Source: Balanoglossus misakiensis | Lineage: Eukaryota > Animalia > Hemichordata | Assembly (NCBI GenBank): GCA_040954595.2 | Contig: CM082588.2 | Coordinates: forward strand, 732,613 to 796,612 | Direction: 5' to 3' | DNA length: 64,000 bases | Part shown: positions 37,563 to 63,612 of the stretch, in pieces | Numbering within the stretch: position 1 is the stretch's first letter | Layout: every line of letters begins with the position of its first letter | The notes under the pieces: model-generated | What the model saw: only the letters and a program-made list of their open reading frames with translations | Told to the model about the DNA's origin: nothing | Database searches by the model: none | Program-made: the position numbers and the translations under genes

Positions 37563-37810
37563 GATGTTCATCCTTCAAAGACTGAGTTTCGAATGATGAA
37601 AGTGGCGCCTCACAGACCATCTGGCAAAGGAACTGACTGACAACTATCCAATCAAAATGTGTCATTCACCAGGTGTATTTTGTGAAGCTTGTGATTGGTT
37701 GATGTGATTGAGAAGTTGATTAGCATACCAAGATCACATATGTTGCCTTAATGCTACGTGTTGTTTACCGGATAATGTACTAGTGTCGTGCAATCGTTCA
37801 GATATCGTTC
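37120..37810. repeat. Triplicated segment, copy 1 (downstream of array gene 1)
   Basis: Shares long blocks such as GTCACTACTTTCAGC..ATGATG, CTATCCAATC..AATGTGTCATTCACCAGGTG..TTTTGTGAAGCTTGTGATTGGTTGATGTGATTGAG and TTAGCATACCAAGATCACA with 51542-51940 and 57925-58565. Confidence 0.85.
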
Positions 37811-38236: not shown

Positions 38237-41200
38237 TTATTCCGTTGATTGGAATGTGCTGAGATCCTCGGTTTCGTAGCAGCAGTTGTCAGCCGCTGGT
38301 GGCGCCATTGACGACGAATCTGAAAGAATAAGAAAACCACCTGTTAATCCTGGCCTTTATGGCTGCGAGAAAAATTCAGCTCTGGTTTACTGTGATTATT
38401 AACAAACTGCTCACCAAATTGAAAACTGGCGTGATCTGTCATACTGACTTGATATCTCTCTGCCGTGGAAGAACTCAAAGATTTCCGATTTGATTCTGGA
38501 AAGAAAAACACCAAAATAAGATATCATGCCAAGGCTTGATTAGTTATCTAATTAGTTAATTCCCGTCAACATGCCGGCAACATAAAAAGGAAAATAGATA
38601 CATAGACAGGCAGACAGAGCTCGAGAAATAGAGAATTACTTGCACTTAAAAATAGTCGTAAGAGCGAATGTAGAAACTGAACTCAGGTAGACTTTCAAAC
38701 AGCAAAGAGGCAAGACGGATCACTCACCTGTTGTGTCATATTCCGCCTTGTGACATGCGCAGCGTCTTCTCCATTGCTTCTGCACTTCTTTGTTCAAAAG
38801 ACAATGGAATATAAAGATGAAGAGTCCCTGTAGACTGTTGAATATGGCGAACAGATAACTGAAGAGCAACCGAGCTTCACCAACAGCGAATATGGCGAAC
38901 ACCCACGTCAGACCAAGGAGTACCATCAACCCGAAAGCCGCCCTCAACTGAGCCTTGAGATCGAACCTTTCGTTTATAGTCATCGCCTTGGAGTTGAGCC
39001 CGCATATTTTATAAACAACGATACAGTAGATGAATGTGTTGAAGATGAGAATTAGACACAGAGGAGCCAGGAATGCACCGTAGAATGGGTACCTTGACAA
39101 CCAGCAGCTGAAAAAGGTGGAAATAAACTCAAGTTAAATTACTTCCGTCATCATCATTCGTATTTTCATGCATAGCCGGGGAGAAATTATCGTATTTAAT
39201 CTCTCCGATATCATCAAGGTTCTTAAATAGGATTTTATACATGGGCCGAAATTCTTGGCCACCGCCTTCCACCACCGCGGCCACCATCCCGGGATGTGGG
39301 GGGTTCTGTGAAGTCTATTACTACTTACATTCCAATAATTATTCTTTTTTTGTACTTACAACATGCTGTAGTATCCGTAGTTCTCGGTATCCACGGCAAC
39401 TGTAACCACGGTTACGATAAGAGGTATGCCTGTCGATATAAAATGACCAGAATGAAAGTCCACTCGGTATGAGAGTGAGAGAGCAACTTACTCATTGAAA
39501 CAAAGCTCATAATTTTCAAATTCAAAAGTAACTCACCCCATCCAATGAGACAGAATTTGGTCATAAAATGTGAAATGTACGTCTTGAAAACTTTGATCAG
39601 AAGTAGATACATATGAACTGCTTCTAAAGCCATCCAAACAAAGACAGCCAATGCAAAGTAGTGTAACAAAACAGCCAGGGTCGTACAAAGCTCGGGTATG
39701 ATTGGTGCAAAGTCCACGACGATTGCATTGACCAGGAAAAGCAGTAACGTCATGAATAATGCAAAACACAGGTTTATCATGATCTTCGCTTGTTTTTCTT
39801 TCCTCCTCCTACGAATATAGAAAATACAATATTCTTGAAACGGTACGGAATCTGGGTACTATTTCAAATACATGTATGCAACAGAAAGTATGCGCACAGC
39901 TCTTGGTAGAACGTCAATTGTGTGTCAAACTCATATCGTGATTATACATGTCACCATAGTTACCAGCAAAATATGAAATTGAGGAGCGTCAAGGTCAGGG
40001 CTAGGAGGGAGATTCCACAACCAATGTAGGATATGAATGTTAAAGCCATCTGGTTGGCCTGATCGATGTCGTCACTTCCGCCATATACATCCTGTGGGAA
40101 CAATATGGAGGACAATGTGTGAATGAACCAGTCTTGGGCGACGATATTAATAGAACAAGAAGTCTCATGATAGACAGAATAAACCATTTAAAAAAACAGA
40201 GTCTTACCAGAAGGAGAGCAAAATGTGTCAGATGATCACAATGACAAACGGTGACATTTCCGAAACTCGACTCTTCCATGGACACAGCACAACCACTGCT
40301 TGACCATCCTCCATTGCCTTCTGTCAAATCAAATCAAAAGACATTCTCATTACATTCTGACCCTAACAAGTAAAATCAGATCAAATCCAGCAAAGCCAAA
40401 TTGGACACACATACATACTTTTTATAAAGCAACTTTTGGAATGTGTAAGCTACGAACAGTCAGTATGGTAAGAACCAAGAGGCGACAACGTTAAGAAAAC
40501 GACAAAATCTTACCATTTTGGGAAAAGTCCCAGAAAACACACGAAGGGTCGTCCTGAGGGATCTAAATATTAAAGACAGTGTTCAAGGCTGTGATAATAG
40601 AAACACCGTAAACATATATGCTGGTATTAACAATCGATTAATATGGACAATTTAACAGAAAAGTTGAAACTCTGGAAGAATTGATGTAACTCACAGTACT
40701 AAATGCTTTTTTAAACGTCATTAAAACAGGCTCCGCCAAGTTCTTGATTTCTAAATCACCGATACTGGCAGCGATGACTGGACCACTTAGCCGACTGAAT
40801 GGAAATGAATTATTGTCGTTCTCCGTGCTGTTTGTCGAGAATGAATCCACAATGGCCTGTGTAAAGAAGATCAAAATGAGACGATGCACCATCCATCCAT
40901 CCATCCACACACACACACACAATTTCTCGCTGTAAATTGTGCTGTGTATTCCGAACCAGTGCAATATCAGTAACGATAAGATCCGCAATCACAAATTACA
41001 AATGAAATTTCAGAAGAATCAAGTTTACCTGAAAAAAGGCATTTGAACGATAAGAAATAAACTGCGCAGTCTCAAAACTATTCCCCGAATTCAGGAGCGA
41101 TGCTGGGAGGGATATTTCAGATTCCAAATTCTCCTTCGGTAGTTCTTCACTTCTTGAGAAAGCACTCTGACGATAAAAAAGAGGTTCGTAACAACATATT

Positions 41201-44200
41201 ATTATCACAACTTTCTTGGACAAATATTTTTTACTCCACACACATATATACTTTTTACAGAGGAACTTTTGAACTTCCTATATTCTGCACGAATATGAAA
41301 TATGGGATAGCCAACAGAGAACACAGTTATGAATAGAAAGAGGGCACTGTACCTTGCCTTCTCCATTCTCAGCAGAGTAGACACCGTACTGCAAACCACC
41401 AAAGTCACTACCATTGATAGCCACAACAGTCAGGGAAATATTCCCCGTTACCAAGGTGATAGAGCCGTTACCATTGACTTGGATTCCCTTTGAAACTTGT
41501 TCTACGGCCTTGATTAGTCTGGATAAGAAGTGATTTATGATAATTCATCACTTAATCTGCAGATCATATGAATGCTATTACCAAATGTTTGGTATTGAAC
41601 AAGCTGAACTTGGTGTTAGATGTTTTCGGACAAGACATCACGCGTTCAAAGTATATATATGGTCTCGTCCTTCGGTCACTCACCTTGAGGAGGTGCCATG
41701 TTGCTTGTTACTTTCAGCCAAGACGTCGTTCCCAGCATTCATCAAATTATCTACTATCTGCAGTATATTCTGTGCAACTTCCAAATCTGTTCCGTTGACT
41801 TGACTGTCCAGGATGTTGTCTACAATATCCACCGATGCCGCCACGTCGCCTGCGTCGAAACTTTCAGCTTGGCTTGTGATGGCGCTCATACGTTGCGATA
41901 CCACTCTTGCTTGCTCTTCAAAAAAGGAAAAGTAGTTTTGTTTGTGTTACACAGTAACAATCTAAATGCACTAGAGTATTAAACATTTCATGTGTGATAA
42001 TTATGACGTTATCTTTTACCTGGCAGAATCGTCATATTCACTATTTGGTTGAAGCGGTCTTCGTTTGTTGCTTGTGATTCCGGTAGACATCCACTTGTGT
42101 CCGGGTCATTCCACTTTGATTCAGATGGCGACAGTAGCAGACTAGAAAAAGGGGGTTATTTGAGAGTTTTTCTTTAAAACGTCAGCCCATATATGAAATA
42201 CTAAAACTTTGAAAATGACAAATATAAAGGTGTTGATTCAGATCTATCGTTACATACCACTGTCGCTCAACCATAAATTCATCGTCTCCATCTTGTCGAC
42301 CATGGGGACAGGGACGAAGTATTGTGACATTATCGTCAGCTTCTGTTATTGGCCAATCGATAATTCCTTTGTTGTCTGCGGTGAGTTCAGCATAACAATA
42401 GGGTTTGAACGCTTTCTTGGTCGATGCCACTGGTACAGCTGTCGTTCGCGTTGATCCCATTGTCACCATAGTGGTCCTTGTCGTAGAGGGTGCACCTGTA
42501 GATGTTTCACAATCTTAAATGCAATCCCCATCTGACAGAAATCAGTTCAGTAATGACAGAATTTGATGGGTCTAAAACGGGGCCAGATTCGACAACAATT
42601 TTGACGATTCTACAGTATGAAACACCTACCTGGTGTCGTTGGTAACCTTGGTGACAGTTCCCGAGGCAGGAACATATTACACATGTCACCTTGACAACAC
42701 TGGGTTGCACATGTGCCACTCCGACCACTTGGACATTCCCCCAGTTCGGTTTGGCCTTCATCCGGGCACTCTGACGAACTCGCGCAAAGCTGCTGCAGTT
42801 GGGAATGTCCTTCCGAAACCCTTTCGAAAGTTTTGCATCGATCCTGAAAGAAAGTTACCAAACGATAAAGTTAGTCACAGTCGACAAATCAGTTCTGTCC
42901 TCGATGACAACAAACGTTGATGTTAACCCTTTGAAACACTGGTGTGTTTTTCTGCTATTGTCGTCATTGCATGTTTACACAAGCATTTGGCATTGTCAGC
43001 GCCATAAACGGAACATGGTCAATTAGATCATGCAACTTAAATTGCTTGTCCATAAAAGTAATACAATGCGTGACATACTTGATGCGACAGACATGATATT
43101 GGATGTTGATTGCGACAGTCATTATTACTTGAAAACTCGCACGTGTAGCACCTCATCCCTGTCACTTCTGTAGAAAATGAAACAATGAAAATAATGTCAC
43201 ATCAAAATTAATACGTTGTGTCAGAAATGCTGACATGAACTTGTATCATTCGAATAACTCCCATGAATCAACGGCTGTTAGGGGTATGAATGGGACAAGG
43301 ACAATCGTCCTAGATCTGTAACTAGGAAGTAGCATTCCCTGGTCTTGCAGCTGTAAGTTTTACCCCAAAACTGTCCACTTACCTTCACACATAAAATCAT
43401 CAACTGTCAGACTGGACAATTCTCTGCCTGCAAGTGACTGTGGCGATTGGCAGACAGCACCAGACACATGGAGATTTTCAAACAACTGATATTTGTTCGT
43501 AGCTGTGTAATGGAGCCATCTTAGTTGGCAGTTACACTCCAATGGATTGCCTTGCAGTTTCCTACAATGGAGAATGATGGAGCTGTTATAGGATCCCGAG
43601 TTTCATTCATTCATTCATTCATTCATTCATTCATTCATTCATTCATTCATTCATTCATTCATTCATTCATTCATTCATTCATTCATTCATTCGAGCAGAC
43701 TATCAACTACAGTGTACATGGTAACTAAGTTTCCCTATCTGTCCTTCTGTGAACCCAAGGAACAAACACACATTAGTTAAATACTTACAATTCCCTGAGA
43801 GATGTCATGTCGACAAGGTCTTCAACAAATATTCGTCGAATATCATTGCCTTCCAAGTTTCTGAAACAAAATTGAGCAACCATAGCGGTGTCATAGGCGT
43901 GGCACTGAAGGAAAGTGGATAAAATATCTCAGTGAGCAGTCAATGTCTGTGTCCGTGTACGATTCAAATACATGCATTCGTCTGTCTGCTGCATCGACAG
44001 AACATTACTGTATTATTTGCGGGTGTGAGATCGATCAAATTCTACTTACAGAACTCTGGTGGAAGGTGGCAAGTCTCGCGGGAATTCGCTTATGTTTTGG
44101 TTGGAGAAGTTGACGTAACAATTGTGGGTAGCGCCATTAACGCAATTTGTGTTAACTGCAGTGCAAGTGTCAGCCACAATGCACAGAATTACAAGTAGCG

Positions 44201-44234
44201 GAATTTTCCCACGTCGGAATTCCCGCAGCTGCAT
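38237..44234 (-). CDS. Adhesion GPCR, ADGRG (GPR126/GPR64/GPR112)-like 7TM; signal peptide-LRR-LRRCT-Ly6/uPAR-S/T stalk-HRM-GAIN/GPS-7TM (array gene 1)
   Basis: About 19 exons: 44050-44234 (signal peptide/LRRNT), 43789-43860 (72-nt phase-2 LRR exon LNLEGNDIRRI), 43383-43561 (LRRCT GNPLECNCQLRWL), 43079-43167 plus 42630-42843 (MRCYTC...CCQGDMCN), 42258-42495 plus 42020-42141 (HRM), GAIN exons to 40208-40320 (WSSSGC..CHCDHL|THFALLL), TM1 39964-40091, then TM exons ending in FSYLFAIFNSLQGLFIFIFHC..VQKQWRR, and C-tail exons with the stop at 38237-38239. Confidence 0.88.
43602..43692. repeat. (TTCA)n microsatellite
   Basis: About 22 perfect TTCA units in an intron of array gene 1. Confidence 0.97.
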
Positions 44235-45973: not shown

Positions 45974-48900
45974 TTATGTCAGTTTGGAATCTTCATGGGT
46001 CGCTGTAGATAGGAAATCAGACACATCGTTACCTTTCAACATATAGTTGGAACTGTCAACTTAGGATCTTGGTAACAACTATTAAATGAATATGAATGTT
46101 AACAGCTAAGAGCCTGCTAAATCTTTAGAATACATATTTGGATTAAAATAAACATTTTGATGACTTACCAGAGTTGATACTGGTGTTTGTTGTGTCGTCG
46201 GCGTGATATTTGAGGGCACTTGAAGAACTGACGTTTGAAGAGCGAGTACCATCTGTGAAAAAGTAAAAATAAAGTGTATCTTTAGATGGTTCAGAAGAAT
46301 CATTGAATTGAAGATCTGTTTAGCATTTCAAATGCATTGCTTACCTGTTGTTGTATACGGTGTTTCCTTGCCTCTACAGAACGTCTTCTTCCAACCATTT
46401 TGGATATCTTTCTTCCAAGCACAATGGAAAACAAAGATGAACAATCCCTGAAGAGTGTTGAATATAGCAAACAGATAATTAAAGGCAAGGCTGGCGTCAC
46501 CAACAGCGAAAAAGGCGAACACCCACGTCAGGCCGAGTAATACCATTAACCCAATGGCCGCCCTCAACTGTGCCTGAATGTTGAACCTTTCGTTTGAAGT
46601 CATCTTCTTGGAGTTGAGTCTGCATATTTGATGGATGACGAGACAGTAGACGATAGTGTTGAAGACGAGAACCAGGCACAATGGAACCAGGAAAGCACCG
46701 TAGAATGGGTATCTCGTCAACCAACAACTGAGAATAAAATATGCCAAAAACAGATTATCTCACCTCATAATAAAAAAAATTAATCAACCAGTAGTGGTAA
46801 AGCAACAATATCGCCAATAAATTATAACCAAAATCACATTGACAACAAACGAAAAGTAATTGCTTACATAACTGTGCCACCAATTACAAGTGCTTGTTCA
46901 TGGTATCCATAGTTACCGACATCCACTGCAAGAGTAATTATCACGATGATGAGTGGTACACCTACAGGTATAATAATAAAAAACAGTCAGTGCTAAGAAA
47001 TTATCAAACTCTAGCAGTCATAAACAAGTAATATACATGTATACTGCTGTTGTTGTAAGTTGACGGATAAATGAATTTTGTGTCAACAAATAATTCTTTT
47101 TGTGTGACGGGGTTCGAGATATGACGATTTTATAAGTAATTCCTTACCCCAGCCAATCAAAGAAAACTTCACCATGAAATGCCTCATATACGTGTCAAAC
47201 ACCTTGACCAATAGCAGATACAATAGGACGGCTTCCAGAGCCATCCACACCAAAACGGCCAATAGGAAGAAGTGTAGCATGACAGCTATGGCTGTACACA
47301 GCTCTGGTATGCTTTCCGCGAAGTGATTGGCTAACGAACTAATCAGGAACATCAGCAATGCCATGAAGAGCGCGACACACAGACTGATGAGTATTTTGGT
47401 TGCCTTGTCTTTCTTCTTTCTAAAAATAAGAAAACATGCGTAACTTTTATGTATTTTAACAGCTTGTGTCAAATATGTTAAAAGCTGCTGCGACCAAGGC
47501 TCTTCACGATTGGCCATTCGCCAACCCTGGCTTTTTGTTCTTGTGTCCACCCACCCCCTCGTGAAAATACACCTTCCGCTATCTTGAAAACTCCCTTAAA
47601 GGAGGAAAACCACATTAACATTATTGAAGACAAGTTCCTCAGAATACTTACTTGTAAGCCAATACACTGGCAAGTGTCACAGCCAATGCAAGTAAAGATA
47701 AACCAAGGCCAATATACGATATTATAGATAATGCTTTCTTATGATCCTTATCGATACCATCATTGTCGCCATAGACGTCCTAATATGGAACACAGACAAA
47801 ATTGGGAACTTTAGTATACAGTATAGGACTATAAAATATGATCGATTGGACCATTTTGACGACTGAATGAGTGACGTTGCGATTCAGGTACGTCTTACTC
47901 ACCACAAGAAGTGCAAAGTTTGTCAAATGGTTGCATTCACACACTGTGGTGTCATTATCACCATCATCGGTCGATGAAACCATACAGCCTTCGTGAGACC
48001 AGGCACCGTCGCCATCTACAGGAAGTAAAGTAGAGCATATGTCGTTATTGAAACATCCTTGCGTTGGCTACATAAACTTTACGTTCCGCAGGTTATGCAA
48101 ATGTGTCTCACCTTTTAAATCGAAGTCCCAGAATCCACAGCTGATGTTAAGCCTGCTTGTATTTGTATGCTGAAATTGGTCAAATTTACATATTTTACTT
48201 TCAATGGTAAATTAACACGCAATCGAAGCAAAGCAGTGATGAGAAGCCCAAACAGCCTTAGAAGACATTTTGCAGTCACGTATATTATAAACGACAGAAA
48301 ATGTATATTTACCGTAGTTTGATGCGGCAATCTGATCTTGACCTTCTCTGTCAAATTAGTGATTCTTAATTTCCCGATGCTTGCAGCGACAACTGGAGTG
48401 AAACCAGCCCTTGTTGAGTTGTCAACAGCCTGGAAACGATTGTGTATATATTGTCAGTCATTTGGTTGGGTCTTTGATGATGGTAGTTGTAAGCAAAAAT
48501 TCAAATAGTCTATCGATTCAGTCGTTAGGTCCATCAACTGAAAATTTTCACAAGTCCAATAACACAAGCCACATTAAAAGGTAGATTACACCATGACAAG
48601 ACAGTATATTTATTCAGAATGTTCTTGGGTGACTTGGTGCCTACCTTGAAGAACATGTTCGAGTTGTGTCCCACAAACTGTGCCCTTCTGACCTCTGACC
48701 TTTCCGATTCATCCAATCCATCAAGTAATGACTTTGGAAGTTCAATTGAAGTTCCATTGTTTTCCATCGGTTCGTCTGAATCTGTTTTCCTCGACAGTTT
48801 GCTCTGGGTTGAAAAATCGAATAGAGAAGTTTAAAAATAGTTGATTGGTCACGATCTAATGATAAATCCGTGCTTTGTATTTTCCTTCCGCTTATACATG

Positions 48901-50458
48901 TCAAAACATGATAGGCAAATGTAGTTATTCATTTCATTAAAAATACTATATTGTTCCTTGTCTTACCTTTCCTAGTGACAACTGAAAGTTGAATCCATTA
49001 AACGAATCGGAGTCAATTTCTGCCACTATCATGGCAATGTTGGGCGTTTCTATGGTTACAGTTTGGTTGTCAGAGACAGCGGAGTCATTGCCAAGACTTA
49101 CAAGCAAAGAGAGTCTTTCTACAGCTTCGATGAGTCTGAAAGTAAAAAGTCACTTTTGAGCAAGGCATTTCGAATAGTGGCAATTTTTATGAGAGAACAT
49201 CCTCACCAAAAAAAGCTTGACTTGAATTAACTGGCTAGCAACCCGTTGCTACGGTAACTACCCAAGTCTCGCGAGATCTTGCAATGAGCAAAAAATCGTC
49301 TATTACTGTGATACAAATCATTGGGTTCACCTTGTGGCGGCCTTTTCATTTTTCTGACTGGCGACCAACACTCCAGGGTTGACTCTTAGCAGATTGTCCA
49401 CACTTTGTAGAACATCCTCCGCCACGTCGATTTCTGTGCCGTTCTCTCCGCTTTCCAAAAGATTTCCGACAACGTCGACGGAAAGCGTCAAGTCGGTTTC
49501 CTCGAAGCTTTCAGCTTCGGAGGTGAGGTTGGCAAGCTGCTGGGAAATTTTCTTGGCTTGCCCTGTCAGAACATAAATGCATATGAGAAAAACAAACTTC
49601 GGTTGCTGCATCAGCTGCAATAGTCACGGGATCAGTGGCTAGTATTTCCATTGTTATTTAACTTACCCGGTGGAATAGTAGTAATATTTGCCAAGTGGTT
49701 AAGACGACGTCCTCGACCGATTTCTCTCTCTGAGGTACAGTTTGACGTGTCAGCGTCCAACCACTCTCCTGTTGACGAACTTTAAAGTGAAATAAACAAT
49801 AACGCTATAAAACTCTTCGTAATGAAAGTTACAATTAATATTAGACAGGTGATAAAACTGAGTCATCAACACCGAGACACAAACTTGCTTTCCTATTATA
49901 TTAAATAAAAGTGAAACAATTCGACATAATAGACCGTCGTTGTGTGAAAACAGCAACCGTTGGAAAGATTTCCTTACCACTCTCTCCGTGCTTTTGCATT
50001 ATTTCCCTGAGAAAAAGGACATTTCCTCTCGACTATTCCACCCGCTTCCTTATTGGGCCAATTAATTATGCCCTTGTCGTCGGAGGTAACATCTGCTGAA
50101 CATCTTAGCGGTTTCTGGGGTGATCCCATATCTTCCGAATTTGAGCAGTTATTCAATTCGAGTACATGTGCTGCATTAGCTACAAATATAGTCAAAATTA
50201 CAAATCATTCAGATACAAATATTATTCTACTGGTATTGAAGAAACTGTAATCCGCTGTATGCGGCGAACGGCAAATCACAGTCTTGCCAATGATCCACTT
50301 GCATTCTCAACTAGACTGGGTATGTAAATTTGAAATATACGTCACATGCTCCCAAACTTACCGTTACAGTTAGGCCTATTGTTGTCTCCACGACCAGGGT
50401 TTGTTATTGCTACAGGTATGGTAATGAACAGAATCAGGAATCGTAGAAACACTGCCAT
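45974..50458 (-). CDS. Adhesion GPCR, ADGRG-like; signal peptide-HRM-GAIN/GPS-7TM with no distal adhesion domain (array gene 2)
   Basis: Signal-peptide exon 50362-50458 (MAVFLRFLILFITIPVAIT..) is followed by HRM exons ~49978-50180 and ~49667-49779, GAIN exons, GPS exon 47903-48016 (WSHEGC..CECNHL|TNFALLV), TM1 exon 47652-47779 and TM exons (LHFFLLAVLVWMALEA; LLGLTWVFAFF..FNYLFAIFNTLQGLFIFVFHC). The tail ends ATHEDSKLT* at 45974-45976. Confidence 0.88.
49238..49297. repeat. ~60-bp dispersed element with TCTCGCGAGA palindrome and X-box (copy A)
   Basis: Its reverse complement matches 52961-53016 closely. It contains GTTGCTACGGTAAC (49245-49258) and TCTCGCGAGA (49267-49276). Confidence 0.7.
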
Positions 50459-51541: not shown

Positions 51542-51940
51542 GAACCAGAACTTCATTGAAGTTAGTTTCTGGCGTACAATTAAAAATTTCACCAAAAATG
51601 CTTCGAGATAAAATGTTACTTACAGTAGAGGATGTGCGCAATTGGGCCGCAAGCCAGGAGAAAAGGCACCCTCGATTTTCGTCAAGTCACTTTCCGCGAC
51701 CGATAATTGTTGTCACTACTTTCAGCCATGATGTTTGCACGCCAAAGATTGAGTCTCGAATGATGGAAACGTGGTCCCTCACTAGTGCATTGATCATGTG
51801 ACAAATGAACTGGCTGACAACTATCCAATCGAAATGGGTCATTCAGCAGGTGCTTTTATGAAGCTTGTCATTGGTTGCTGCGATTGAAGTTGATTAGCAT
51901 ACCAAGATCACAGATGTTGCCGTAATGCTATCGTTCAGAT
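51542..51940. repeat. Triplicated segment, copy 2 (internally deleted; downstream of array gene 3)
   Basis: TACTTACAGTAGAGGATGTGCGCA, GTCACTACTTTCAGCCATGATG, CTATCCAATCGAAATG and TTAGCATACCAAGATCACAGATGTTGCC are shared with the other copies. About 110 nt of the interior is missing. Confidence 0.85.
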
Positions 51941-52600
51941 CTTCAAGATCTAACAGTTAAACTGCATTATCCCAGACATAAAAATGATATACATGGATTT
52001 TAATTACACTCCCATACGCCATAAACCTGAATGGCAGAAAGTTAAGTCAGTTTAATAACTCATCATGTATCTCTTAACCGTTTTTATTTATTGTCACAAG
52101 AATGTGAAATCACATGTAAAATAATCACTCTCACACAAATCCTATTAGTACTGCATCGCTATTTAACATAAGATAAATGTAACACATTTAGAGAAAATAC
52201 CAGTTTGCCAGAAATAGGCATTCGTCATTAAAACAACTCATTGGTGTGAAGGGAGGTCTAAAATATTAAATGTGAAAGGATACATTAATTAACGCAATGT
52301 TGTAATAAGCGCCCTGCCTTTACACAAAGTGGTGATTAATATTGGCTCACACAAACATCACAAACTGCAACAAACCATTGGTCGACCACGTTCCTCAAAT
52401 GTAAGGATATGGAAGACCATAAACTAATATTATCTAAGCAATACAACTTGGAATACGTTGTCATCTTCATAGATATTATACATTTAGAATATTTAAGATC
52501 ATTTACACTTCAGTGATACAAACTAAGAACTACAGCAAAGTATGTAAATCATTTCAAAGAAAACAAAAGTATGTAAATCATTTGTGGGACGGAGACACCA

Positions 52601-54646
52601 CTATCCAGACATCAAAGCCAAGACCAGCAAGGCTATTCCGTACACCAGATACACAGGCATGCAGAACACTTTCTGAGTGGCTGAATTCATCCGGCCAATA
52701 TCCTAATACACAATATGAAAATAATTTGTGAGTAATCAATAAATGGTTGATTGCATATTTAGCACCGATAATTCAATGGTAATTTTCAAATGAGAATTCA
52801 CAGATATTGAAAATATTACTTACATCGATAAGAGCGAAGTTGGTCAGGTGATCGCATTCGCACACAGTAGCGTTACTGTCACGTGGTCTTTGGGGTGAAG
52901 GGACGCAACCTTGGGTTGACCAACCACCATCGCCATCTGCATTGATAGGATGACGATTAGGATTTTCTGTCCATTGCGAGATCTCGCGAGACTTGGTTGA
53001 TTACAGTAGCAATGGGGGGGGGGGGGGGCAGGCGAGTATTGCAAGTGTCAGGCTTTGTATCAGTGAAACATGGAAGTATTACTACTATACAACACTGCTT
53101 ATATAAATGCACTAAAACACCACTTACCTTTCAATTCGAAATCCCAGAAGACACAGCCGACTTGGTCTGGACGCATATCATCATCCTGTCAAAGAGATTC
53201 GAGATTTTTAGAACTAGAGAACATCAATGTAACCACCGTACAGAACTGGTTTCGATAAGGAGAATCTTAACAAACCAGTTACATGTAGTATAGATGCATA
53301 CCTGTTTGAGGTGCTCCAATGTGATCTTGACTTTATCCTTCAAGTTGGTGATTCTGATCTCCCCAATACTTGCAGAGATGACCATACTGAATCCAGGAGA
53401 TGTCGAACCATCAATTGCCTGACAAAAGTAAAAGAAACGACCCATTTTACGGCAACAGCGATTGCATTGTCAGAAGAGGCCAAAACGGAGCTGGCCAATC
53501 AGAACGTGCATCTCATAAAATAGGGGAGATATGCCACTGCGTTTCCATAGCTACACATCACCTACCTCGAAGAAACTGCTCGAATTGTGCACCGTAAACT
53601 GTGCACTTCTGACCCGAGAACGTTCTTCTGGGTCTAATCCATCCAGCAATGATCTCGGTAACGCGATGGAGGTCCCACCCTCCTCATCTATCTGCTCGTC
53701 TGACTCGGAATCCGTGGAAAGTTTGCTCTTGGACCAAAATAGAATGAGAAATCAATCGATCAAACAAATAATCTCATCGACAATCTTTCGAGAAACTAAA
53801 TGATACGCCATCATAATCATCACTTTCGGTAAGAAATTTATACAGAATTTTCTTGAAGATATTTTACTTCTCTTACCTCTCCAGAAGAGATCTTAAAATT
53901 GAGTCCAGAAAACGTATCGGGGTCTACCCCAATCACTGCCATAATGATACTCGGAGTTTCTATGGTTACTGAGTTGTTGACGCCACCAGTTCCTTCATCA
54001 TCCAATGCAATGGTGGATGAAAGTTTATCAATGGCTTTGATGAGTCTAAGCGAATAAAAAACAACAAGGGTTGAGGGGCCATTGCCAAAACACAACACAG
54101 AAAACCCCAAGAAATGACAATATTCACCTAGATACCGCGTTTCCGTTCTTCTGACTCGATCTTAGAACGCGACGACCAACTCTCGCTAATTTATTCATGC
54201 TCTTCAGAACGTCTCTAGCAACTTCCACCTCTGTACCATTCTCGCCGCTGTCAACAATGTTATCAACAACATCAACAGAAAGCATCATGTCGTCTTCCTC
54301 AAAGTTCTCCGCCTCTGAAGTGAGGTCGTCCAGTTGTTTCGAAATCTTCCTTGCTTGTCCTACAACACAACAAAAATATAATACTAAGTCTGTGGATGAT
54401 ATGCCTAGAAAAACCACAAGAAATATATCTACATCATCAGAAGTTCCCTTTAGGTAAATATGAGAAAAGGTATGGTTTGTTTAGCACCTACCTCGAGGAA
54501 TGGTCGTATTGGCTAAATGGTTAAGACGTTCCCCTCGAGTGACTTGATTCTGAGGGGTACATTCTGAAGTGTCAGCCTCTCCCCATTCTGGTCTACCATC
54601 AGCTGTCATCATGCTGAGGGTAGAAGAAAAACATCATTTTTTATTT

Positions 54647-54717
<71 letters not shown>

Positions 54718-55992
54718 GCCTGCCTGCCTGCCTGCCTGTTTGTCTGTCTGTCGCACATGGAATTCATTACATGATCAATTACCATTCTCTCTTTGCTGTT
54801 TTCTTGCCTTTGCGCGAGAATGGACATCTTCTTTCAAATGTCCGATCACCCCTTATACCCGGCCATTGTATGATGCCCTTATCGTCTTCGGTGATATCAG
54901 GTTGGCATTTCGGCTGCCTTATGTCAGAAAGAGAAACACACTTCTCCTGACCGATTACATCTTCGTCGTCGGCTGTAGAACAACAATATACATGTTTTCA
55001 GAAAATTACACAAATACCATGTTAACATGTTCAAGAACTGAAATCAATACACAAACCATGGAACTAGATTTTCTGCATGGAAATAAAAGACAGGGAATCA
55101 ACTCACGAAATTGGCAGATAATATTCAGATATTTGGAGCAACATGCGTCATTCATCTTGAACCTATCCTCCACATTATGTGTAGTTTTCCTGTAACGAAT
55201 CAGAAAACAGAATACGATTCCTGACTAAAAAACATTTCAATGGAAGCGAAAATGTATGAAAATATTCGAGCGAAAACATTCAGAGCTCCAGACTGACGTG
55301 TGCACTGAAATAAAGTGTGAATCTCAAGTTAATTCAATCGCTTGCATCATCTTGGCATACGCACCTTAATTGGCAACATCCTTCCGTTCCTATGGCAACA
55401 GTGGGAGATTCCTCAGTCAGGTTTTCAGAAGAGCTGCAATCCGATTCGTCTGGTTGCCCAACCGCCCACATCGGATTGTTGTCCCCAACAACTGTACCGT
55501 CAAGCCACGAGAAACCATTTCCTTCTGTTTTATTACAACCTATCCAATATCCCTTGATCATTTGTCGCTTGAATCTGTCACGTGACATCAAGTGGTCCCT
55601 CACGGCGTCAAATTGGGAAGAGTTGGAAAACTCAGCCAGGTGGCCGCTGATTCCCAAGCTTTCTTGGTGAACATTCCCGCAAAAATCTTTGGCGTCATTC
55701 CAGTTTTCTTTGGAGAAGTGTTCGAGAAATATCTGGAACGTGTCGCTGCCAACCCTCACCAGATCTGAAAGGACATATCTTTATCAATCATAACATCAGA
55801 GGAATTCCCAAATAAAATGACATTTGTAGAATAGATTGTGAATTAAAAATTCCAATTCAATTAATTAAATATAGCCTTACGTTCACAGATTATAACTCTT
55901 TCTCCTTCTGGGAGTAGTCGTCTTGCTTCAATCGTTGTCAGATGAAACAGAATGATGAAAACAGTCACACTACCAGAGAGTAGTTTCGTCAT
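52601..55992 (-). CDS. 7TM-less adhesion-GPCR-derived protein: signal peptide-C-type lectin-HRM-GAIN/GPS-hydrophobic (GPI-signal-like) C-terminus, 619 aa (array gene 3)
   Basis: 12 exons: 55881-55992, 55365-55764, 55107-55189, 54783-54972, 54492-54613, 54128-54359, 53877-54045, 53566-53727, 53302-53418, 53128-53185, 52824-52936, 52601-52702. All are GT-AG with closing phases (1860 nt) and no internal stop. The lectin reads WNDAKDFC..YWIG..W..GQPD..CC..MNDACC..IICQF, the GPS reads CECDHL|TNFALID, and the last exon reads DIGRMNSATQKVFCMPVYLVYGIALLVLALMSG*. Confidence 0.88.
52961..53016. repeat. ~60-bp dispersed element with TCTCGCGAGA palindrome (copy B, inverted relative to copy A)
   Basis: GATTTTCTGTCCATTGCGAGATCTCGCGAGACTTGGTTGATTACAGTAGCAATGGG matches the reverse complement of 49238-49297. 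Confidence 0.7.
54647..54752. repeat. (TCTG)n/(CCTG)n microsatellite
   Basis: Tetranucleotide run in an intron of array gene 3. It explains the spurious LSVC/DRQT ORFs. Confidence 0.97.
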
Positions 55993-57078
55993 TTCGACTA
56001 AAAATGTAAACAATATCAAGAATTAAAGAACTCGTCGAAGGATGAAATACATCATGTACTGCGCCATCAACGTTACATTGTCACAGAAAAAACAGTTTAT
56101 CTGCGCAAATATTGACTGCCATAGAAACAGCAAGACTTTAATTTCAACGCCGATAACAAGCAACACGTTAAGCCTCTTACAGAAAAATCCCAATCGGTGA
56201 AATTCTTTAATAAACGAGAGCAAAGGTTAAGAATAACCACGAGGTAATGCACATGAATACAAAGACAAGATTAGAGGCGAGATACTTGAAGAACTGTGAA
56301 CTGTCCCAAAGCAAGAACGGATTAAGTCACCCTACTTTCCCGTACGAACTGTTTCGTGTTATGCCGTGAGGGGTCCTTAATTTACGTCATAACAAAATAC
56401 ATCGCTTAACCAGTAATTGACCTCGTGTGAAACAAATCGGCAAGTTGATATGGCAAGAAAGCAGTGCTGGAGACGTCATCGCCATCAAATATTGTGCTGT
56501 CGCCAAGGTAACGTAAGCAAGCGTCCGAAGAATGAAATTCTCACTTTGAACAAAGCGTCGAACTTGAAGGTACTCGATTGGAAATAAGTACGTTCCCTAA
56601 CTACAAGCTCAAGTCCTGCCTATCATACTCGTAGAGTTAACCTGAAACCCTTCAGAAAAATTTCCACCAAAGTTGCGTAAGAATAAAGCAAGTATGTGTT
56701 CACTCAACGTTATGGTGGGGGTGTAAGTTTGCGTCTTTTTCATATTCGAACTACGTGTGTTGAAAATATACAATTTTGTGTATTTTGACAGGATTTTTGA
56801 GACGAAATTACTTAAAGACATAAAGCATTCCTCTGATCTTCACAAAACGTGTTCATTCGCCGTTAATTTATACTTACCGTTTTAGTGAGGTGCTTCTGCT
56901 GCCTCTTCCTCCGATGTTACGTTCGGATTTGTTTTACCAAGCCAACAGACTTTGCCGTCTCGTGACTGTGTCTGTCTGTCTGTCTTCTAAACTGACACTA
57001 TGGTGGTGTTGAATCCGCGTCTAGTTTATATAGACGTCCCAACAAATGCAGAGCAAAATTTGAGACGGTTCAAACATA

Positions 57079-57650
57079 AAGGTAGTACCCGCCTCGAGGA
57101 CAGATTTCCAGAAAAATGATAGTCCTCCAAACAAAATTCTCTGCACCGTCTTATTTTCATGAAACTCAATACCTAAAATGTTCTGCACAGATTAACACAG
57201 AGGTTGGCGGCCATTTTAGATTGTCGAATTTGAGACACAATTTTGATTTCTTATTCAAACTTGTGAACGGTGCAGTGTGACCCCCCCCCCCATTTTTATT
57301 TTCAATTTTAAGAGAGATACGATAAAGTTTTCCTGTCAAGAAAACACTACTCCTTAGTGAATACAAATATTGAATTTCTCCCTGAGGCGACCACATGCAA
57401 CAATCTGTGTGCACTTTAAGAAGGATTAATTATCACCATTCGGGTTCAGTTAACTGTTAAAGGTAATATGTACCTCAGGGGCAGATTTTCAGAAAAAAAT
57501 ATAGTCCTCCCAACCATTCAGTTCTTTGTCATATCAAAATGTGTGAGAACTCTTTTTGGAAACAAAGAAATCGAATCGAAATACCTTCAGAAATAAATGA
57601 AAAAAAATTGCCCCTAAAGACGAACACTTACTGCTAATGGAGAGATTATA
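57079..57650. mobile_element. Two adjacent decayed copies of a non-autonomous DNA-transposon (MITE-like) family
   Basis: The same terminus occurs twice: AAGGTAGTACCCGCCTCGAGGACAGATTTCCAGAAAAATGATAGTCCTCC (57079) and AAGGTAATATGTACCTCAGGGGCAGATTTTCAGAAAAAAATATAGTCCTCC (57460). There is an internal GGCGGCCATTTT motif and a degenerate inverted end (GAGGCG..) near 57385. The family assignment is an inference. Confidence 0.5.
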
Positions 57651-57924
57651 ACACGTATTTTAACTGATCCAGGGCAATGATCCATGATGTGACCTTTGAC
57701 CCATGAACGTGATCAAAATCCTAAAGGAAACCAGTATATCACACAATTCGTGAGAAATCTATTAAAACGTGCAACACTGCACGTACCCACAGTCTTTGTT
57801 CTCTTGGGACATTATCTTCATGTGCCGTTGCATTTTGTCTGAACACATGATAACAATTGTTCATTGTTTATTTTGAAAGAGATGCTACCTCCTCCCGAAA
57901 GAATTTCTTTCGGATGCGTAGACT

Positions 57925-58565
57925 TGGTTCGGCCATCTTTCTCTGTAGTCTCTGCGCTGGGCTCGACCATTGGTTGGGGTTTCATTTCTACCTCGCACAG
58001 TTTCGCCTGAGTTGCAGAACCAGAACTTCATTGAATTACCTTGCTGACGTACAATTCCTTGTTTATAGAATTTACATTTACATGTTTTCGAGAGAAAAAT
58101 ACAGAAAACTTACTTACAGTAGAGGATGTGCGCAGTGGGGACTGCAAGCCAGGAGAAAGGGCCTTGATTTCCTTCAAGTCAACTTTCCATGACCGCTGGT
58201 TTATGTACATTATCTTCAACGAGGCTACCAAAATCTTGGAATATCCAGTCCATATCGTCACACTCACGACCTCCACTTGGTTGTCGGAAATTGCTCTGGG
58301 TAATGAATTGTCGTTTTTGTCACTACTTTCAGCGTGATGTTTGCACGACAAAGATTGAGTCTCGAATGATGGAAACGTGGTACCTCAATGATCATCTGAC
58401 AAATGAACTGGGTGACGACTATCCAATCGAAATGTGTCATTCACCAGGTGCATTTTGTGAAGCTTGTGATTGGTTGATGTGATTGAGAAATCGTTTAGCA
58501 TACCAAGATCACAGATGTTGCCTTAACAGGATCATGTACTCGTGTCGTGCAATCGTTCAGATATT
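57925..58565. repeat. Triplicated segment, copy 3 (downstream of array gene 4)
   Basis: Colinear with 37120-37810 over ~650 nt, including two exon-like blocks and the CCAAT-rich region. Confidence 0.85.
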
Positions 58566-59636
58566 GAACTCCATGCGGCTCTCATATCGTTCAATATCGC
58601 GTTCATTATACATACCACACAGTGTTGAAAGATCGAATTCAGAAACACTTTATATGGGTAGGGAACATATCACCATTTATTCAGGAAATCACAGAAAATC
58701 ACAATCTTGCTAGAGATGAACATATCATCAAAAGCTCGGAAACAATCCTTCAAAATGCCTTGCATTACCGGCACTAACACCGCAGATGATAAACCAGTAA
58801 ACGTTTCCACATACCCGTTTGTATAACTATATAAAGGCTTTGTGATAGAAGTCAAGCAATTTCCAAAACGAATGACTGTGTAAACATCTATACCAAAGTA
58901 CAAAATTTACCTAAAATGTTTGATGTGAAAACTATTTATGATTGATTTCTAAATGCAAGTATTCGTAAATAGCAAAGCAGTAAACCAATTCATTGTCGTT
59001 TTCACTTAATTTTTGCTACCCGAATTACGCAGTGTTCGACATTAAGGATGAAATCAATTAACTAAAACCCAGTCATTTAGGCAATTTTCTCCAGATCTGC
59101 CCTCGTGGGTTTGATAGAACAAAAACCGTTAAATCACATCTACACTTCTTCACCAATTGTAAATGCACGTCTTCAGAAAGATCAAATTCACAAAGTCAAG
59201 GTGTACAAGAAATTCTTTGATAAAGTTACAAATACTATAGTGAGATCCTTTGTTACATATGGATACATCGACAACCTCAGGTCTGTTATGTTTTATCGTC
59301 GTATAGTGCTAATAGAGCTTGTTAAAATATATGCTAATGGATGAGTACTCATGCAAAATATAACTATCATCTGAATTTTCTTTATGGTAAGGCACAAACA
59401 TCTAGTAATGAATTTGAAATCGCTCTTCAAGCATAAGTACTTTTTCATTAGTGGCAAGATTACATGCAAACTTGTGACTCAGTGGCAATGTATACGCTTA
59501 CTCAGCTACTGGTGTTACTCTCTCAAACAACTAATGGTTGAAAAATGAAGGTAGATCGTATTGAGTACCCTGCAGAATGTGTGACGTATTCTTCATATTG
59601 AGAATCCGATCCGTCATTAGAAGGATGAAGTAGCCA

Positions 59637-60948
59637 CTAACCGGACATCAAAGACCATGCCAGAAGAGACATACCGAACGCCAGGTAAACTGTTAAAGAC
59701 GCCATGTTCTGATTGGCCGAGTTGATCTTGTTGATATCCTGTTTGAAAGAAAATGCAAATTAAGTTAAATGACCAACTTCGTGTGTAGACTCATTCAGAT
59801 GACCCTTCCCCTTTAAAGCTCGAGCTCCTTGAATATTTGATTAGATTAGGTCTTATAAGTCATGCACAGAGATATGAATAGAAAGAGTAATATCACTCAC
59901 ATCAATGACTGCAAAGTTGGTAAGATGGTTACACTCGCACACGGTCACATTATTGGTTGCCTCGGCAACTAATTGGACGCATCCTTCTGATGACCAACCG
60001 CCCTCACCGTCTGAAATGAAAGATATCACCATTTTATTGAGTCAATAATTGTACTATCTTGTTGGTCCTTTTTGTGTCTTCAAATACTGGATATACGGAT
60101 ATACTTTTCTGACCAGTATATTTGAAATATGTACAATTATGTATGAAAAGTTTCACTTACCTTTCAGCTCGAAATCCCAGAAAACACAGCCAACATTTGG
60201 AGGACGCTCGTCACCATCCTATTAAAAATATTTGAGTTGTTAGAAGAGGTGACAGAAACAATTTATTAGACAATTTATTAGACAATTCACCTTGTGATTC
60301 TAGGGTCATATCATCGACTTAGAAAGCGAAGATCACCATCGAAGATAACAATGACAGTGTATACCTGTTCTTGATGTTCCAGTCGGAGCTTGACTTTATC
60401 CTTTAATCCAGTGATTCGGATATCTCCAATACTTGCAGAGATAACGCCACTGAGCCCGACAGCTGCGGTTTCATCAATTGCCTAAAACATGAAATGAAAC
60501 ACGTGATGTAACACAACGTGTCATGAAACAAAGTAGGTATGTATTGAACTTGTCCATTTTCTTCATTAGCCAATGTCATGGTGGTGATATAAACTTGTCA
60601 TGCAAATCTTGTGACTTTTTCACCTACCTCAAAGAAGGCGGTATCCTTGTAAGCTAGAAATTGCACCCTGTCGACCTTTTCCAACATTTCGGCGTCTAAA
60701 TCATCAAGCAGGGACATCGGTAGTTCAATTGAGGATCCATCTTCTTCATCATCTGATTCTGATTCCGATTCTGTTGACAGTTTTGTCTAAGTCAAATGAC
60801 AGGAATAAACTTTAGACACATTCTCATTTAAATGCTATTCACTTTGAATCTTTCGTTCGTCCATCTATTCACCAATCTACACACACACACCCATCCATCC
60901 ATCCAACAGTCCGTCTACTTATCTCCTACTTAAATACCTGTCTGTCTA

Positions 60949-60999
<51 letters not shown>

Positions 61000-63612
61000 G
61001 AAATGAACTTTAATTTGCCTTACTTTTCCAGCTGAAGACTTGAATTTAAATCCGGAAAACACTTCACGATCTATCTTTGCTACCGTCATGGCAACATTTG
61101 GAGTTTCTATGGTTACGGTATCGTTACCCATGTCCCCTTCCTCCAAGGCAACAGTCAAAGAAAGTTTCTCGATGACTTTGATGAGCCTGAAAGAGAATTA
61201 AAACAACTAACATTTGAATATATACCTCTAGTAGCATTGTGGAAAACTTTTTGTGTATAAACGATGCCGGGCCACTTGATACAACTGTTTGTTGAAGAAA
61301 CGTCTTAGCCTTATGTCATTTACTCATTAAGGAATTCGGTAGCCATATTGAACTACAGAACAACAACATTGCAGTAGTTATTCACCTTGATGCAGCATTG
61401 TCATTTTTCTGACTTGCTTTCAACACTCCACGACCGACTTTGGCCAAATTATCCACGCTTCTGAGAACATCTTTGGCCACCTCCACCTCTGTACCGTTCT
61501 CGCCACTGCTGTCCACAATATTCCCGGCAATGTCAACAGAATTTTCCATGTCGCTTTCCTCGAAGTTTTCTGCTCCTGCGGTTAGCTCGTTCAATTGCCT
61601 AGAAACTTTCTTGGCTTGCCCTGTCAAAAAAAGACAAAATATAATGCTCATTAAAATGTATGAAACAGTCAACCGCTCGATAATCTGCAAATGTCACATT
61701 TCCCACTCTTGCATGATGAGTTCAAGCAAAATGAAAATGAAAATTGAAAAGTTTAGAGGAGTATCGTTCTTCTAAAAAATCTGTTCCCAAGGCGCACACT
61801 ACTTTAACAAGGCTCATACCTCGTGGAATAGTTGTGTTGGCCAAATGATTGAGACGATTCCCGCGACTGACTTGACTCTGTGGAGTGCATTCTGAGGTAT
61901 CAGCGTCTCCCCATTCCACTCTGCCCCCAGCTGTTGTCAAACTGAGAGGAAAGGAGAGTTAATTATCATAATTATGCCTCAATTCATTAAAAGAACATCC
62001 TTTAGGGTATAAGCCTACAGTGTGAGTAAAATTAACAATGTCATCCACCATTAAAGGTACGTAAACGTTTTTGTACTGGTTAATTTGCAAACATTCAAAT
62101 ATTTACATCTTCGGACTTGATTTTCCGCTATCAGAATACATGTATAATGCTTGTGGATTGGCCAAGACAAAGAGCTGACCGACATAAGCTAAAATCTGCA
62201 ACCAATAGGCATCATCTTACCATTCCCTCGTTGCTTGCTTAGCGTTTCCCTGGGAAAATGGACACTTTCTTTGAACAAATTGACCACTTCTTGAAGACGG
62301 CCACTGTATGATCCCTTTATCGTCATCGGTCAGGTCAGAAGGGCATCTTGGTCCTCTTGGATCATTAACACAGGTGTCAGGACCGATCTGATCTCGTCCA
62401 CCAGCTTTCAACAAAATTGTAAAGATGTACGCGTCACCACAGTTGGTCTTGCTGTGATCACAGTCATGCATTTTTCGTCCTTTTCTCAATCTACAACATC
62501 CATTGCTTTAGATCATAACTGAAACAGTTTTTCCTTTGAACTTGTAAATCACAAACATAAGATTTTATGATTTTACTCACGAAATTGACAGATGAACTGC
62601 ATCTTCTGCGCGCAACAGGCGTCATCCATCTTAAACTGGTCATCATCATTCTGGTTATCATTCCTATCAACAAAAAGAAGGGACCAGTGTTCAATGCCAC
62701 CCCTCTCGAAAAGTTGAGAATAGAATATTCCAAAAGAATTGGCCCTGATTTTCGAGATGCTAACATTACACTTATAGCAGTTACACATCTAGTAAAGCAT
62801 ATTATATTAGCTCATAGTTTCAGGTCTGGTGACTCAGACTGGTGGCTATAATATGTACATACCATAAGCGACAGCATCCTTCGGTTGTCATAGTATCAGC
62901 GGTCGTTTGCTCCTCAGATGTATCGGAGCTGTTGCACACCGCATTATCTGGCTGTCCGTCTAACCATAACGAGTCGCCATCAGCAGTTGCGCCCCCAATC
63001 CACGCGAAGCCACTTCCGTCCGCCATTTTGTCGCAGCCAACCCAGAACCCTTTGACACTGCTGTGACTGAACCTATCGCTGTCTTTCAAGTGGTCTCGCA
63101 CGGCACTTGCGATCGTGGAGTTGGAAAGAACGGCCAAATTACCATCGAGACTAAATCGGTCTTGGTGCACCGTCTCACAAAACGCCTTAGCGTCACCCCA
63201 TCTTTCCTTCTGGAAACTTTCTGTGAATATTTGAAACGTGTCTTCTCCAATCCAGACCAGGTCTAAAAAGGCAATAATATCAAAATTTAGCAACAAATAA
63301 TTATAATAACTAAACGCAACTTATTCACGGATAATAATGACCACATTTGTCGGTGTGACGTCACTTGGATTCTTCTATGGTATAGAGAAGCTTGCCTGGT
63401 TTGACTATAAAAGTCATTCCGTTCATATCCTCACCTTGACAAAATATTTCATCCCTTGGAGGTGGACCTCCTCCTCTTCCTCCTCTTGGGGGAGGACCCT
63501 GGCCGCCAGATCCCCCTCCACTTGGGGGCGGGCCTTGTCCGCTCACTTCCAGCACTGTGACAAGAAGCAGTGCAATCAAGATAGCCACACCTGGGTACAG
63601 GAATTTCGCCAT
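59637..63612 (-). CDS. 7TM-less adhesion-GPCR-derived protein: signal peptide-Gly/Pro/Arg arm-C-type lectin-HRM-GAIN/GPS-hydrophobic (GPI-signal-like) C-terminus, 636 aa (array gene 4)
   Basis: 12 exons: 63435-63612, 62863-63262, 62581-62663, 62221-62404, 61820-61941, 61386-61620, 61024-61186, 60628-60786, 60365-60481, 60161-60218, 59901-60010, 59637-59738. Phases are identical to gene 3 (1911 nt) with no internal stop. The GPS reads CECNHL|TNFAVID and the last exon reads DINKINSANQNMASLTVYLAFGMSLLAWSLMSG*. Confidence 0.88.
60938..61000. repeat. (TCTG)n microsatellite
   Basis: Tetranucleotide run in an intron of array gene 4. Confidence 0.95.

Follow-up and report, generated by a model that had tools for sequence, protein, structure and literature searches.

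The 64,000-nt stretch of the Balanoglossus misakiensis genome that was analysed here (the window, to whose positions all coordinates refer) carries four related genes, numbered 1 to 4 and all on the minus strand, of which genes 4 and 3 encode proteins built like the extracellular part of a G-protein-coupled receptor (GPCR) of the adhesion class that end before a seven-transmembrane (7TM) region could be formed. Both genes were rebuilt from the sequence, with the following coordinates.

63612..59637, minus strand: gene 4, 12 coding exons, 636 aa
63612-63435, 63262-62863, 62663-62581, 62404-62221, 61941-61820, 61620-61386, minus strand: gene 4, exons 1-6
61186-61024, 60786-60628, 60481-60365, 60218-60161, 60010-59901, 59738-59637, minus strand: gene 4, exons 7-12
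58676..58681, minus strand: putative polyA signal of gene 4, the first AATAAA past the stop, 956 nt downstream
55992..52601, minus strand: gene 3, 12 coding exons, 619 aa
55992-55881, 55764-55365, 55189-55107, 54972-54783, 54613-54492, 54359-54128, minus strand: gene 3, exons 1-6
54045-53877, 53727-53566, 53418-53302, 53185-53128, 52936-52824, 52702-52601, minus strand: gene 3, exons 7-12
52087..52092, minus strand: putative polyA signal of gene 3, the first AATAAA past the stop, 509 nt downstream

Two intact genes with a shortened first transmembrane exon

The rebuilt models agree with a preliminary description of the locus, which had proposed proteins of 619 and 636 aa encoded by 12 phase-consistent exons free of lesions: there are no internal stops in either gene, all 22 introns are bounded by GT-AG, and the intron phase is identical between the genes at 11 of 11 positions. 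Both genes end with the same terminal codons, LMSG-TAG, so the shared stop that had been described stands; the equal length of the last exons, which had also been claimed, holds for their coding portions alone, the 102 nt of exon 12 not being the full exon length. The order of the parts is the same in both proteins (signal peptide, Gly/Pro linker, C-type lectin-like domain (CTLD), HRM, GAIN and hydrophobic tail), and each has exactly two hydrophobic segments, an N-terminal one that is signal-peptide-like by its hydropathy and a C-terminal one. The lectin and autoproteolysis features are placed as follows.

62581..63262, minus strand: gene 4 CTLD, exons 2-3; QPD at 62954-62946; Lectin_C 19.0 bits
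55107..55764, minus strand: gene 3 CTLD, exons 2-3; QPD at 55456-55448; Lectin_C 25.3 bits
59901..60010, minus strand: gene 4 GPS exon; HL|T at 59927-59919; the Stachel (tethered-agonist) strand ends with Asp at +7
52824..52936, minus strand: gene 3 GPS exon; HL|T at 52850-52842; Asp at +7

The claim that both genes keep a GAIN domain with the HL|T triad was borne out by a Pfam run on 13 single-exon pieces, in which GPS matched above its cut-off of 22.5 bits in gene 4 (52.4 bits, E 7.8e-14) and in gene 3 (45.7 bits, E 9.1e-12); cleavage at the HL|T autoproteolysis motif is itself a prediction. Lectin_C (cut-off 22.6 bits) matched exon 2 above the cut-off in gene 3 and below it in gene 4, and the matches to HRM, GAIN and GPR128_GAIN_subdomA were all under the cut-off, with no match for the HRM exon of gene 3. 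The lectin is 41% (gene 4) and 38% (gene 3) identical to that of P0010 (XP_070567747.1), a 7TM receptor, and its best sequence match in the PDB is the carbohydrate-recognition domain of the macrophage mannose receptor (E 0.0057). As a sole query, the lectin exon found no homologues among 254 candidates. The QPD of these lectins, which suggests galactose-type binding, is accompanied by MDD or MND at the customary WND position; the putative lectin domains are likely to bind sugar. Skipping of the GPS exon, exon 11, would leave exon 12 (59637-59738 and 52601-52702, minus strand) open over 40-41 codons in the other frame in both genes, and the hypothetical products of genes 4 and 3, of 606 and 589 aa, would be without GPS.

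The origin of the C-terminal tail is found by comparing exon 12 with the two genes that lie downstream, both of which have a full 7TM region and the same GAIN exons.

59637..59738, minus strand: gene 4 exon 12, cut-short exon of the first transmembrane helix (TM1); predicted omega site N609 at 59723-59715, 27 residues from the end
52601..52702, minus strand: gene 3 exon 12, cut-short TM1 exon; predicted omega site N592 at 52687-52679, 27 residues from the end
45974..50458, minus strand: gene 2, HRM-GAIN-7TM adhesion GPCR paralogue without a lectin; TM1 exon 47779-47652, homologous to exon 12 (first 10 exons checked, TM exons placed by search, 3' end by eye)
38237..44234, minus strand: gene 1, HRM-GAIN-7TM adhesion GPCR paralogue whose N-terminal exons are leucine-rich-repeat-like and Cys-rich; TM1 exon 40091-39964 (9 exons checked, TM exons placed by search, both ends and the N-terminal domains by eye)

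Exon 12 aligns with the TM1 exons of genes 2 and 1, which are 27% and 36% identical to that of gene 4, so the tail of genes 3 and 4 is TM1 cut before its end, and the possibility that exon 12 is a newly gained exon is ruled out. The preliminary description had reported no remnants of TM2-7 exons downstream, and indeed the best value that any of 11 7TM queries reached in the two spacers was E 0.26, whereas this query set matches genes 1 and 2 with values as low as E 1e-56. The acceptors of exon 12 score 10.7 and 9.3 (range 4.1-16.6). A scoring matrix derived from 41 donors of the locus, which themselves score 5.1-12.8, gives a single in-range donor inside exon 12; it belongs to gene 4, scores 5.4 and is in phase 1, the ancestral phase being 2, and gene 3 has no counterpart. 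Because the stop falls within the TM1 exon, genes 3 and 4 fail the 7TM criterion of the class B2 adhesion GPCRs, and their products are therefore not GPCRs; the protein alone cannot signal to G proteins.

The two genes diverged long ago and have been constrained since. Over 575 aligned codons, exon 1 being excluded, dS (synonymous divergence) is 1.77 and dN (nonsynonymous divergence) 0.31, and the bootstrap median of dN/dS is 0.17 (0.11-0.24); for exon 12 by itself dN is 0.36, dS 1.23 and dN/dS approximately 0.29. The introns are no better aligned than shuffles in 10 of the 11 pairs, largely as had been noted by eye, with intron 8 as the exception (z=2.7, 5 of 200 shuffles). The deep divergence, and yet the retention of every splice site and of the same stop codon, makes it unlikely that these are decaying fragments, and genes 3 and 4 are very probably real 7TM-less genes.

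In the 24 nt past the stops (59613-59636 and 52577-52600, minus strand), 15 of 24 positions match between genes 3 and 4, and several of the differences are at third positions. Readthrough of the stop codon is not supported, since the comparison with the four-fold sites, which are identical at 58 of 134, gives p 0.046 for a stretch picked after looking.

Relatives and origins

A profile of four GAIN-A exons retrieved 6 proteins, all from Ptychodera flava, and searches with P0004 then brought the set to 166. The GPS pattern is present in 149 of them, with more than 140 residues after the cut in 139 and fewer in 10. Five of the 166 (3 of the 10 short-tailed proteins and 2 of the 17 in which the pattern is missing) end 36-41 residues past the GPS site with a hydrophobic tail that contains no Lys or Arg, and the other 7 short-tailed matches are by eye fragments or cut models. 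The five are the following.

P0004, XP_070568539.1, Ptychodera flava: 7TM-less
P0026, XP_070567748.1/749.1, Ptychodera flava: 7TM-less, has a lectin, site RL|S
P0011, XP_077976981.1-983.1 (three RefSeq accessions), Glandiceps talaboti: 7TM-less
P0027, XP_006815017.1, Saccoglossus kowalevskii: 7TM-less; apparently a fusion of two genes into a single model
P0028, on contig L001: 7TM-less, 424-aa uninterrupted open reading frame (ORF)

None of the five matches 7tm_2, and only P0026 has a lectin, so the search for proteins with GAIN and a lectin but no 7tm_2, which the preliminary description had suggested, yields a single one among the 166. The layout recurs across three acorn-worm genera, Ptychodera, Glandiceps and Saccoglossus. 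That genes 3 and 4 are dedicated, separate, 7TM-less genes derived from ADGRG-like receptors, as had been proposed, is thus upheld by their intactness, by purifying selection and by the recurrence of the layout in other hemichordates.

On L001 the intronless 424-aa ORF of P0028 is followed by 2.67 kb free of TM2-7 matches (best E 0.034), with AATAAA at 3945 of 3976; we infer that the contig looks like a spliced mRNA, which would support the expression of a relative and not of genes 3 and 4. The AlphaFold2 model of P0011 (mean pLDDT 79.3, pTM 0.76) ends in a strand at 401-406 and a low-confidence tail beyond it, and matches the HormR-GAIN region of GPR126 (the best match, 6v55, E 2.9e-21), BAI2, BAI3 and latrophilin. 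Since several of the 7TM relatives, for example P0010, bear the same lectin, the ancestor was likely a lectin-HRM-GAIN-7TM receptor.

A careful tree (21 rows, 364 columns, LG+G4) was made after dropping 8 of the 29 rows of a quick tree (P0002, P0006, P0016, P0034, P0041, P0046 and the N-terminal halves of two fused models). In it genes 3 and 4 are sisters (99/99) and group with P0004 and P0005 (91/95), P0011 and P0028 fall together (100/100), and P0027 stands apart. A single clade of all 7TM-less rows is rejected by the approximately unbiased (AU) test (p=0.028; the hypothesis was set after the quick tree, the label being independent of the tree), while one clade that omits P0027 is not (p=0.212, 0.299). 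There have therefore been at least two 7TM-less origins.

Two further models bear on these relatives. P0025 (XP_077977818.1, Glandiceps talaboti) looks fused, with an N-terminal HRM-GAIN part that groups in the quick tree with P0011 and P0028 and a C-terminal part that groups with gene 1, and may hide a further 7TM-less gene. P0005 (XP_070567178.1, Ptychodera flava), which groups with P0004 (99/97), ends before the GPS with an apparent frameshift and looks like a pseudogene or an assembly error.

Tethered agonist, proposed membrane anchor and mechanism

The strand that follows the cleavage site acts in adhesion GPCRs as a tethered agonist, for which the consensus TxFxxLM is given in the portion of PMC13197933 used here. 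Genes 3 and 4 keep the T and the F and have Asp in the last position, so that the TxFxxLM core is incomplete, and the six 7TM-less proteins that have HL|T read D, D, E, P, P and S at +7, having all lost the last hydrophobic residue of the agonist (P0026, whose strand is shorter by one residue, is excluded from this count). In a set of 132 GPS proteins, near-duplicates included, in which the cut is followed by more than 200 residues, +7 is hydrophobic or aromatic in 126, Thr in 5 and Asp in 1; D, E, P and S together thus account for 1 of 132, and that protein has a shortened strand. The loss of the +7 residue in separate branches fits a long-standing absence of the 7TM partner.

The tail itself may be compared with the published pattern of glycosylphosphatidylinositol (GPI) attachment signals, which, in the excerpt of PMC10491789 drawn on, comprises some 10 polar unstructured residues ahead of omega, a small residue at omega, a residue other than Pro at omega+1, a small residue at omega+2, a hydrophilic spacer of 8-12 residues and a hydrophobic stretch of 15-20. 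In both genes the triplet NSA, 27 residues from the end, accords with the omega rule, and a C-terminal hydrophobic stretch is present with no cytosolic tail; the spacer after the triplet in gene 4 consists of about 6 mostly polar residues. In each of the seven 7TM-less tails a triplet of small residues lies 24-29 residues from the end, and the part after the hydrophobic window is free of Lys and Arg, while the full-length long-tailed rows have 1-6 such residues after the window in 20 of 20 cases. The GPI-signal layout with NSA that the preliminary description had claimed is thus consistent with the published pattern and with the missing Lys and Arg, and is qualified as regards the triplet, which is in part inherited, and the linker of about 6 residues ahead of it. 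Marginal hydrophobicity, which was tried as a GPI marker, does not separate the 7TM-less tails from TM1.

Taken together, these sequence features suggest, with a probability of roughly 0.6, that the products of genes 3 and 4 are GPI-anchored and self-cleaved surface lectins that are held by a 13-residue strand and can be released by force. The genes would be duplicates of a lectin-HRM-GAIN-7TM receptor gene that acquired a stop inside the TM1 exon, and the shortened TM1 likely acts as a GPI-attachment signal, in which GPI transamidase would put the anchor in place of the tail, in gene 4 at Asn609 and in gene 3 at Asn592, so that the polypeptide fragment of ~62 kDa would rest bound to the GPI-linked strand. 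Shear on a bound ligand, or a GPI phospholipase, might then free the lectin together with what it has bound, so that it would work as a decoy or trap, a step that is speculative. Among the components of this proposal, cleavage at the GPS is likely, and the membrane tether, which promotes GAIN cleavage, is relevant here (an ADGRE2 truncation with one transmembrane helix (1TM) is cleaved and reaches the surface; excerpt of PMC12488864); anchoring by GPI, rather than retention of the tail or secretion, is probable, and force release as the physiological use is doubtful. It is a tentative extension, against which the odds lie, that in acorn worms adhesion GPCR genes became GPI-anchored, self-cleaving release devices on at least two occasions, and perhaps on three or four. 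A stop codon would each time have made TM1 a GPI signal, the agonist would have decayed at its last position, and GAIN would be left with the sole role of a latch that opens under force and lets go of lectins or other adhesion domains; such proteins would be an animal counterpart of the sortase-anchored bacterial MAIN proteins.

A number of observations weigh against the GPI-anchored, releasable lectin or against its individual steps. Of 22 long-tailed relatives, 4 have only small residues at the NSA column, a number that rises to 7 under a looser published rule, and DSA-like triplets already occur in TM1 exons, so the triplet is partly inherited from TM1. The linker from the last GAIN strand to omega has only about 6 residues as against about 10 in the published pattern (the +7 change may lengthen it), the spacer of gene 3 is partly hydrophobic from 3 residues past the triplet, the tail of gene 3 has a Kyte-Doolittle (KD) hydropathy of 2.45, which is at the level of a true TM1 (1.80-2.81 in the long-tailed rows), and P0004 and P0026 end in acidic residues. 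P0026, with RL|S at its site, may be uncleaved. The relatives are moreover non-independent samples, the AU test does not reject a grouping of genes 3 and 4 with the 7TM gene 2 (p=0.156), and their raw identity to gene 2, 55%, exceeds the 49-50% to P0004. The release step, which the preliminary description had proposed to be driven by force or ligand, is opposed by the finding that cleaved GAIN normally remains a tight heterodimer (excerpt of PMC3321182); the likeliest product is for this reason one that is stable at rest and freed only by force or lipase.

The same tail would be read differently if it were retained as a single transmembrane helix with almost no cytosolic part, as a gene-encoded equivalent of a 1TM isoform, or if it were too weak for that and the protein were secreted. 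This is unlikely: its descent from TM1, the KD value of gene 3, the short linker and the cleaved, surface-exposed E2-1TM truncations (PMC12488864, in part) are what such a helix predicts, whereas seven of seven 7TM-less tails from at least two origins lack basic residues after the helix and place the triplet 24-29 residues from the end, and the gene 4 tail, at KD 1.55, is weak for a stable transmembrane segment. It is very improbable, by comparison, that the 7TM-less architecture is an artefact of 5' exons that are really spliced on to 7TM exons, or of truncated duplicates in decay. Exon 11 and the gene 2 TM1 exon are both in phase 0 and could be joined, the GT site in exon 12 of gene 4 reaches the bottom of the range of the 41 local donors, P0005 has a frameshifted look, and seven other short-tailed matches are fragment-like; on the other hand, the GT site is in phase 1 and not the ancestral phase 2 and is absent from gene 3, no lesion has accumulated at a dS of 1.77, the exon 12 dN/dS is low, the layout is found in three genera, and on L001 the ORF has no introns and a long non-coding stretch 3' of it.

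A different question is whether the main job of these proteins, with either anchor and hence compatibly with GPI, might be to pair with the 7TM paralogues of the cluster as a co-receptor or lectin donor. By analogy this is conceivable, and we regard it as somewhat doubtful. Drosophila Cirl 1TM binds Cirl 7TM via its N-terminal fragment and is needed for mechanosensing, and GPR126 isoforms interact (bioRxiv 10.1101/2023.01.11.521585, in part); the neighbouring gene 2 has HRM, GAIN and 7TM without a lectin, and its GAIN is 55% identical to that of genes 3 and 4. The +7 loss, however, speaks against trans-activation by the strand itself, and four of the five database 7TM-less proteins have no lectin, so that lectin donation is not general.

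Known systems, implications and further features of the window

ADGRG-type receptors (GPR126/ADGRG6, ADGRG2) and P0010 share with genes 3 and 4 the signal peptide, the adhesion domain, HRM and a GAIN domain with HL|T; genes 3 and 4 differ in having neither TM2-7 nor a cytosolic tail, in the shortened TM1 and in the agonist Asp at +7. P0010, a hemichordate CTLD-HRM-GAIN-7TM protein, has a lectin of the same family (38-41% identity). Polycystin-1 and the sea-urchin REJ proteins belong to a different family and keep their membrane-spanning helices. They resemble genes 3 and 4 in placing GAIN/GPS beyond the canonical 7TM receptor (PMC13197933, in part). The 1TM forms of Drosophila Cirl and GPR126 likewise display an adhesion-GPCR ectodomain at the surface without 7TM; as far as the excerpt of bioRxiv 10.1101/2023.01.11.521585 goes, these are splice isoforms in which the TM helix is retained, whereas in genes 3 and 4, which are genes of their own, the chain ends with a GPI-signal-like tail. 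The evolutionary route has a parallel in the CEACAMs, in which stop codons in TM exons repeatedly created GPI signals and for which pathogen trapping and shedding have been proposed (excerpt of PMC2832619); genes 3 and 4 would share the step from a TM-exon stop to a GPI signal, while the CEACAMs are Ig-family proteins without GAIN or self-cleavage whose anchor is established, that of genes 3 and 4 being predicted. Bacterial and archaeal MAIN proteins, in the part of bioRxiv 10.64898/2026.05.12.724683 used, have a signal peptide, an adhesion domain and a self-cleaving GAIN-like domain with no signalling part, a covalent surface anchor made by transamidation and a proposed release by shear, for which genes 3 and 4 offer a predicted parallel; these proteins are prokaryotic, sortase or wall anchored and little similar to animal GAIN, unlike genes 3 and 4, which descend from 7TM receptors.

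No GPI-anchored GAIN protein appears in the titles or abstract openings among the literature matches listed, an earlier mention in a genome or GPCR-repertoire paper being possible, and the term GPI is absent from the portions consulted of PMC12716839, PMC3321182 and a 2026 review. The 7TM-less lectin-HRM-GAIN genes are apparently undescribed, though RefSeq has models of relatives under GPCR names: such proteins are publicly annotated as 'adhesion G-protein coupled receptor G6-like' although they are unable to be GPCRs, and more of them may for that reason hide in other invertebrate genomes. If the proposed reading is true, these would be natural proteins in which GAIN operates without a receptor underneath, so that its latch or release role could be separated from tethered-agonist signalling, which is hard in 7TM receptors, and the CEACAM-type route from TM to GPI would extend to GPCRs. 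Since +7 is lost again and again while the rest of the strand is conserved, it hints at how the Stachel positions divide between those needed for the 7TM pocket and those needed for the GAIN fold.

Several further features of the window were noted. One non-coding element, at most about 640 bp long, is present in three copies (57929-58564, 51542-51930 and 37143-37805, all on the minus strand) that are 76-86% identical, much more alike than the four-fold sites of genes 3 and 4. It begins just beyond the AATAAA/ATTAAA behind genes 4, 3 and 1 and is not found behind gene 2; it contains CCAAT/ATTGG words and a shared donor-like GTAAGT, has no Rfam match (a search of 36000-64000 found none at all) and may be either a young repeat or a promoter followed by a first exon that is non-coding. 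Introns of gene 3 (52961-53016) and gene 2 (49242-49297) share a 56-bp element in opposite orientation, at 84% identity. At 22919-23323, 405 bp match their own reverse complement at 82%, possibly as a miniature inverted-repeat element, and 24432-25889 on the plus strand stays open for 486 codons, with a C2H2-like motif close to the beginning. The exons at 28324-29844 (plus strand) presumably belong to a gene resembling radial spoke protein 3, and those at about 33500-33900 (plus strand) are, we assume, ferredoxin-like.

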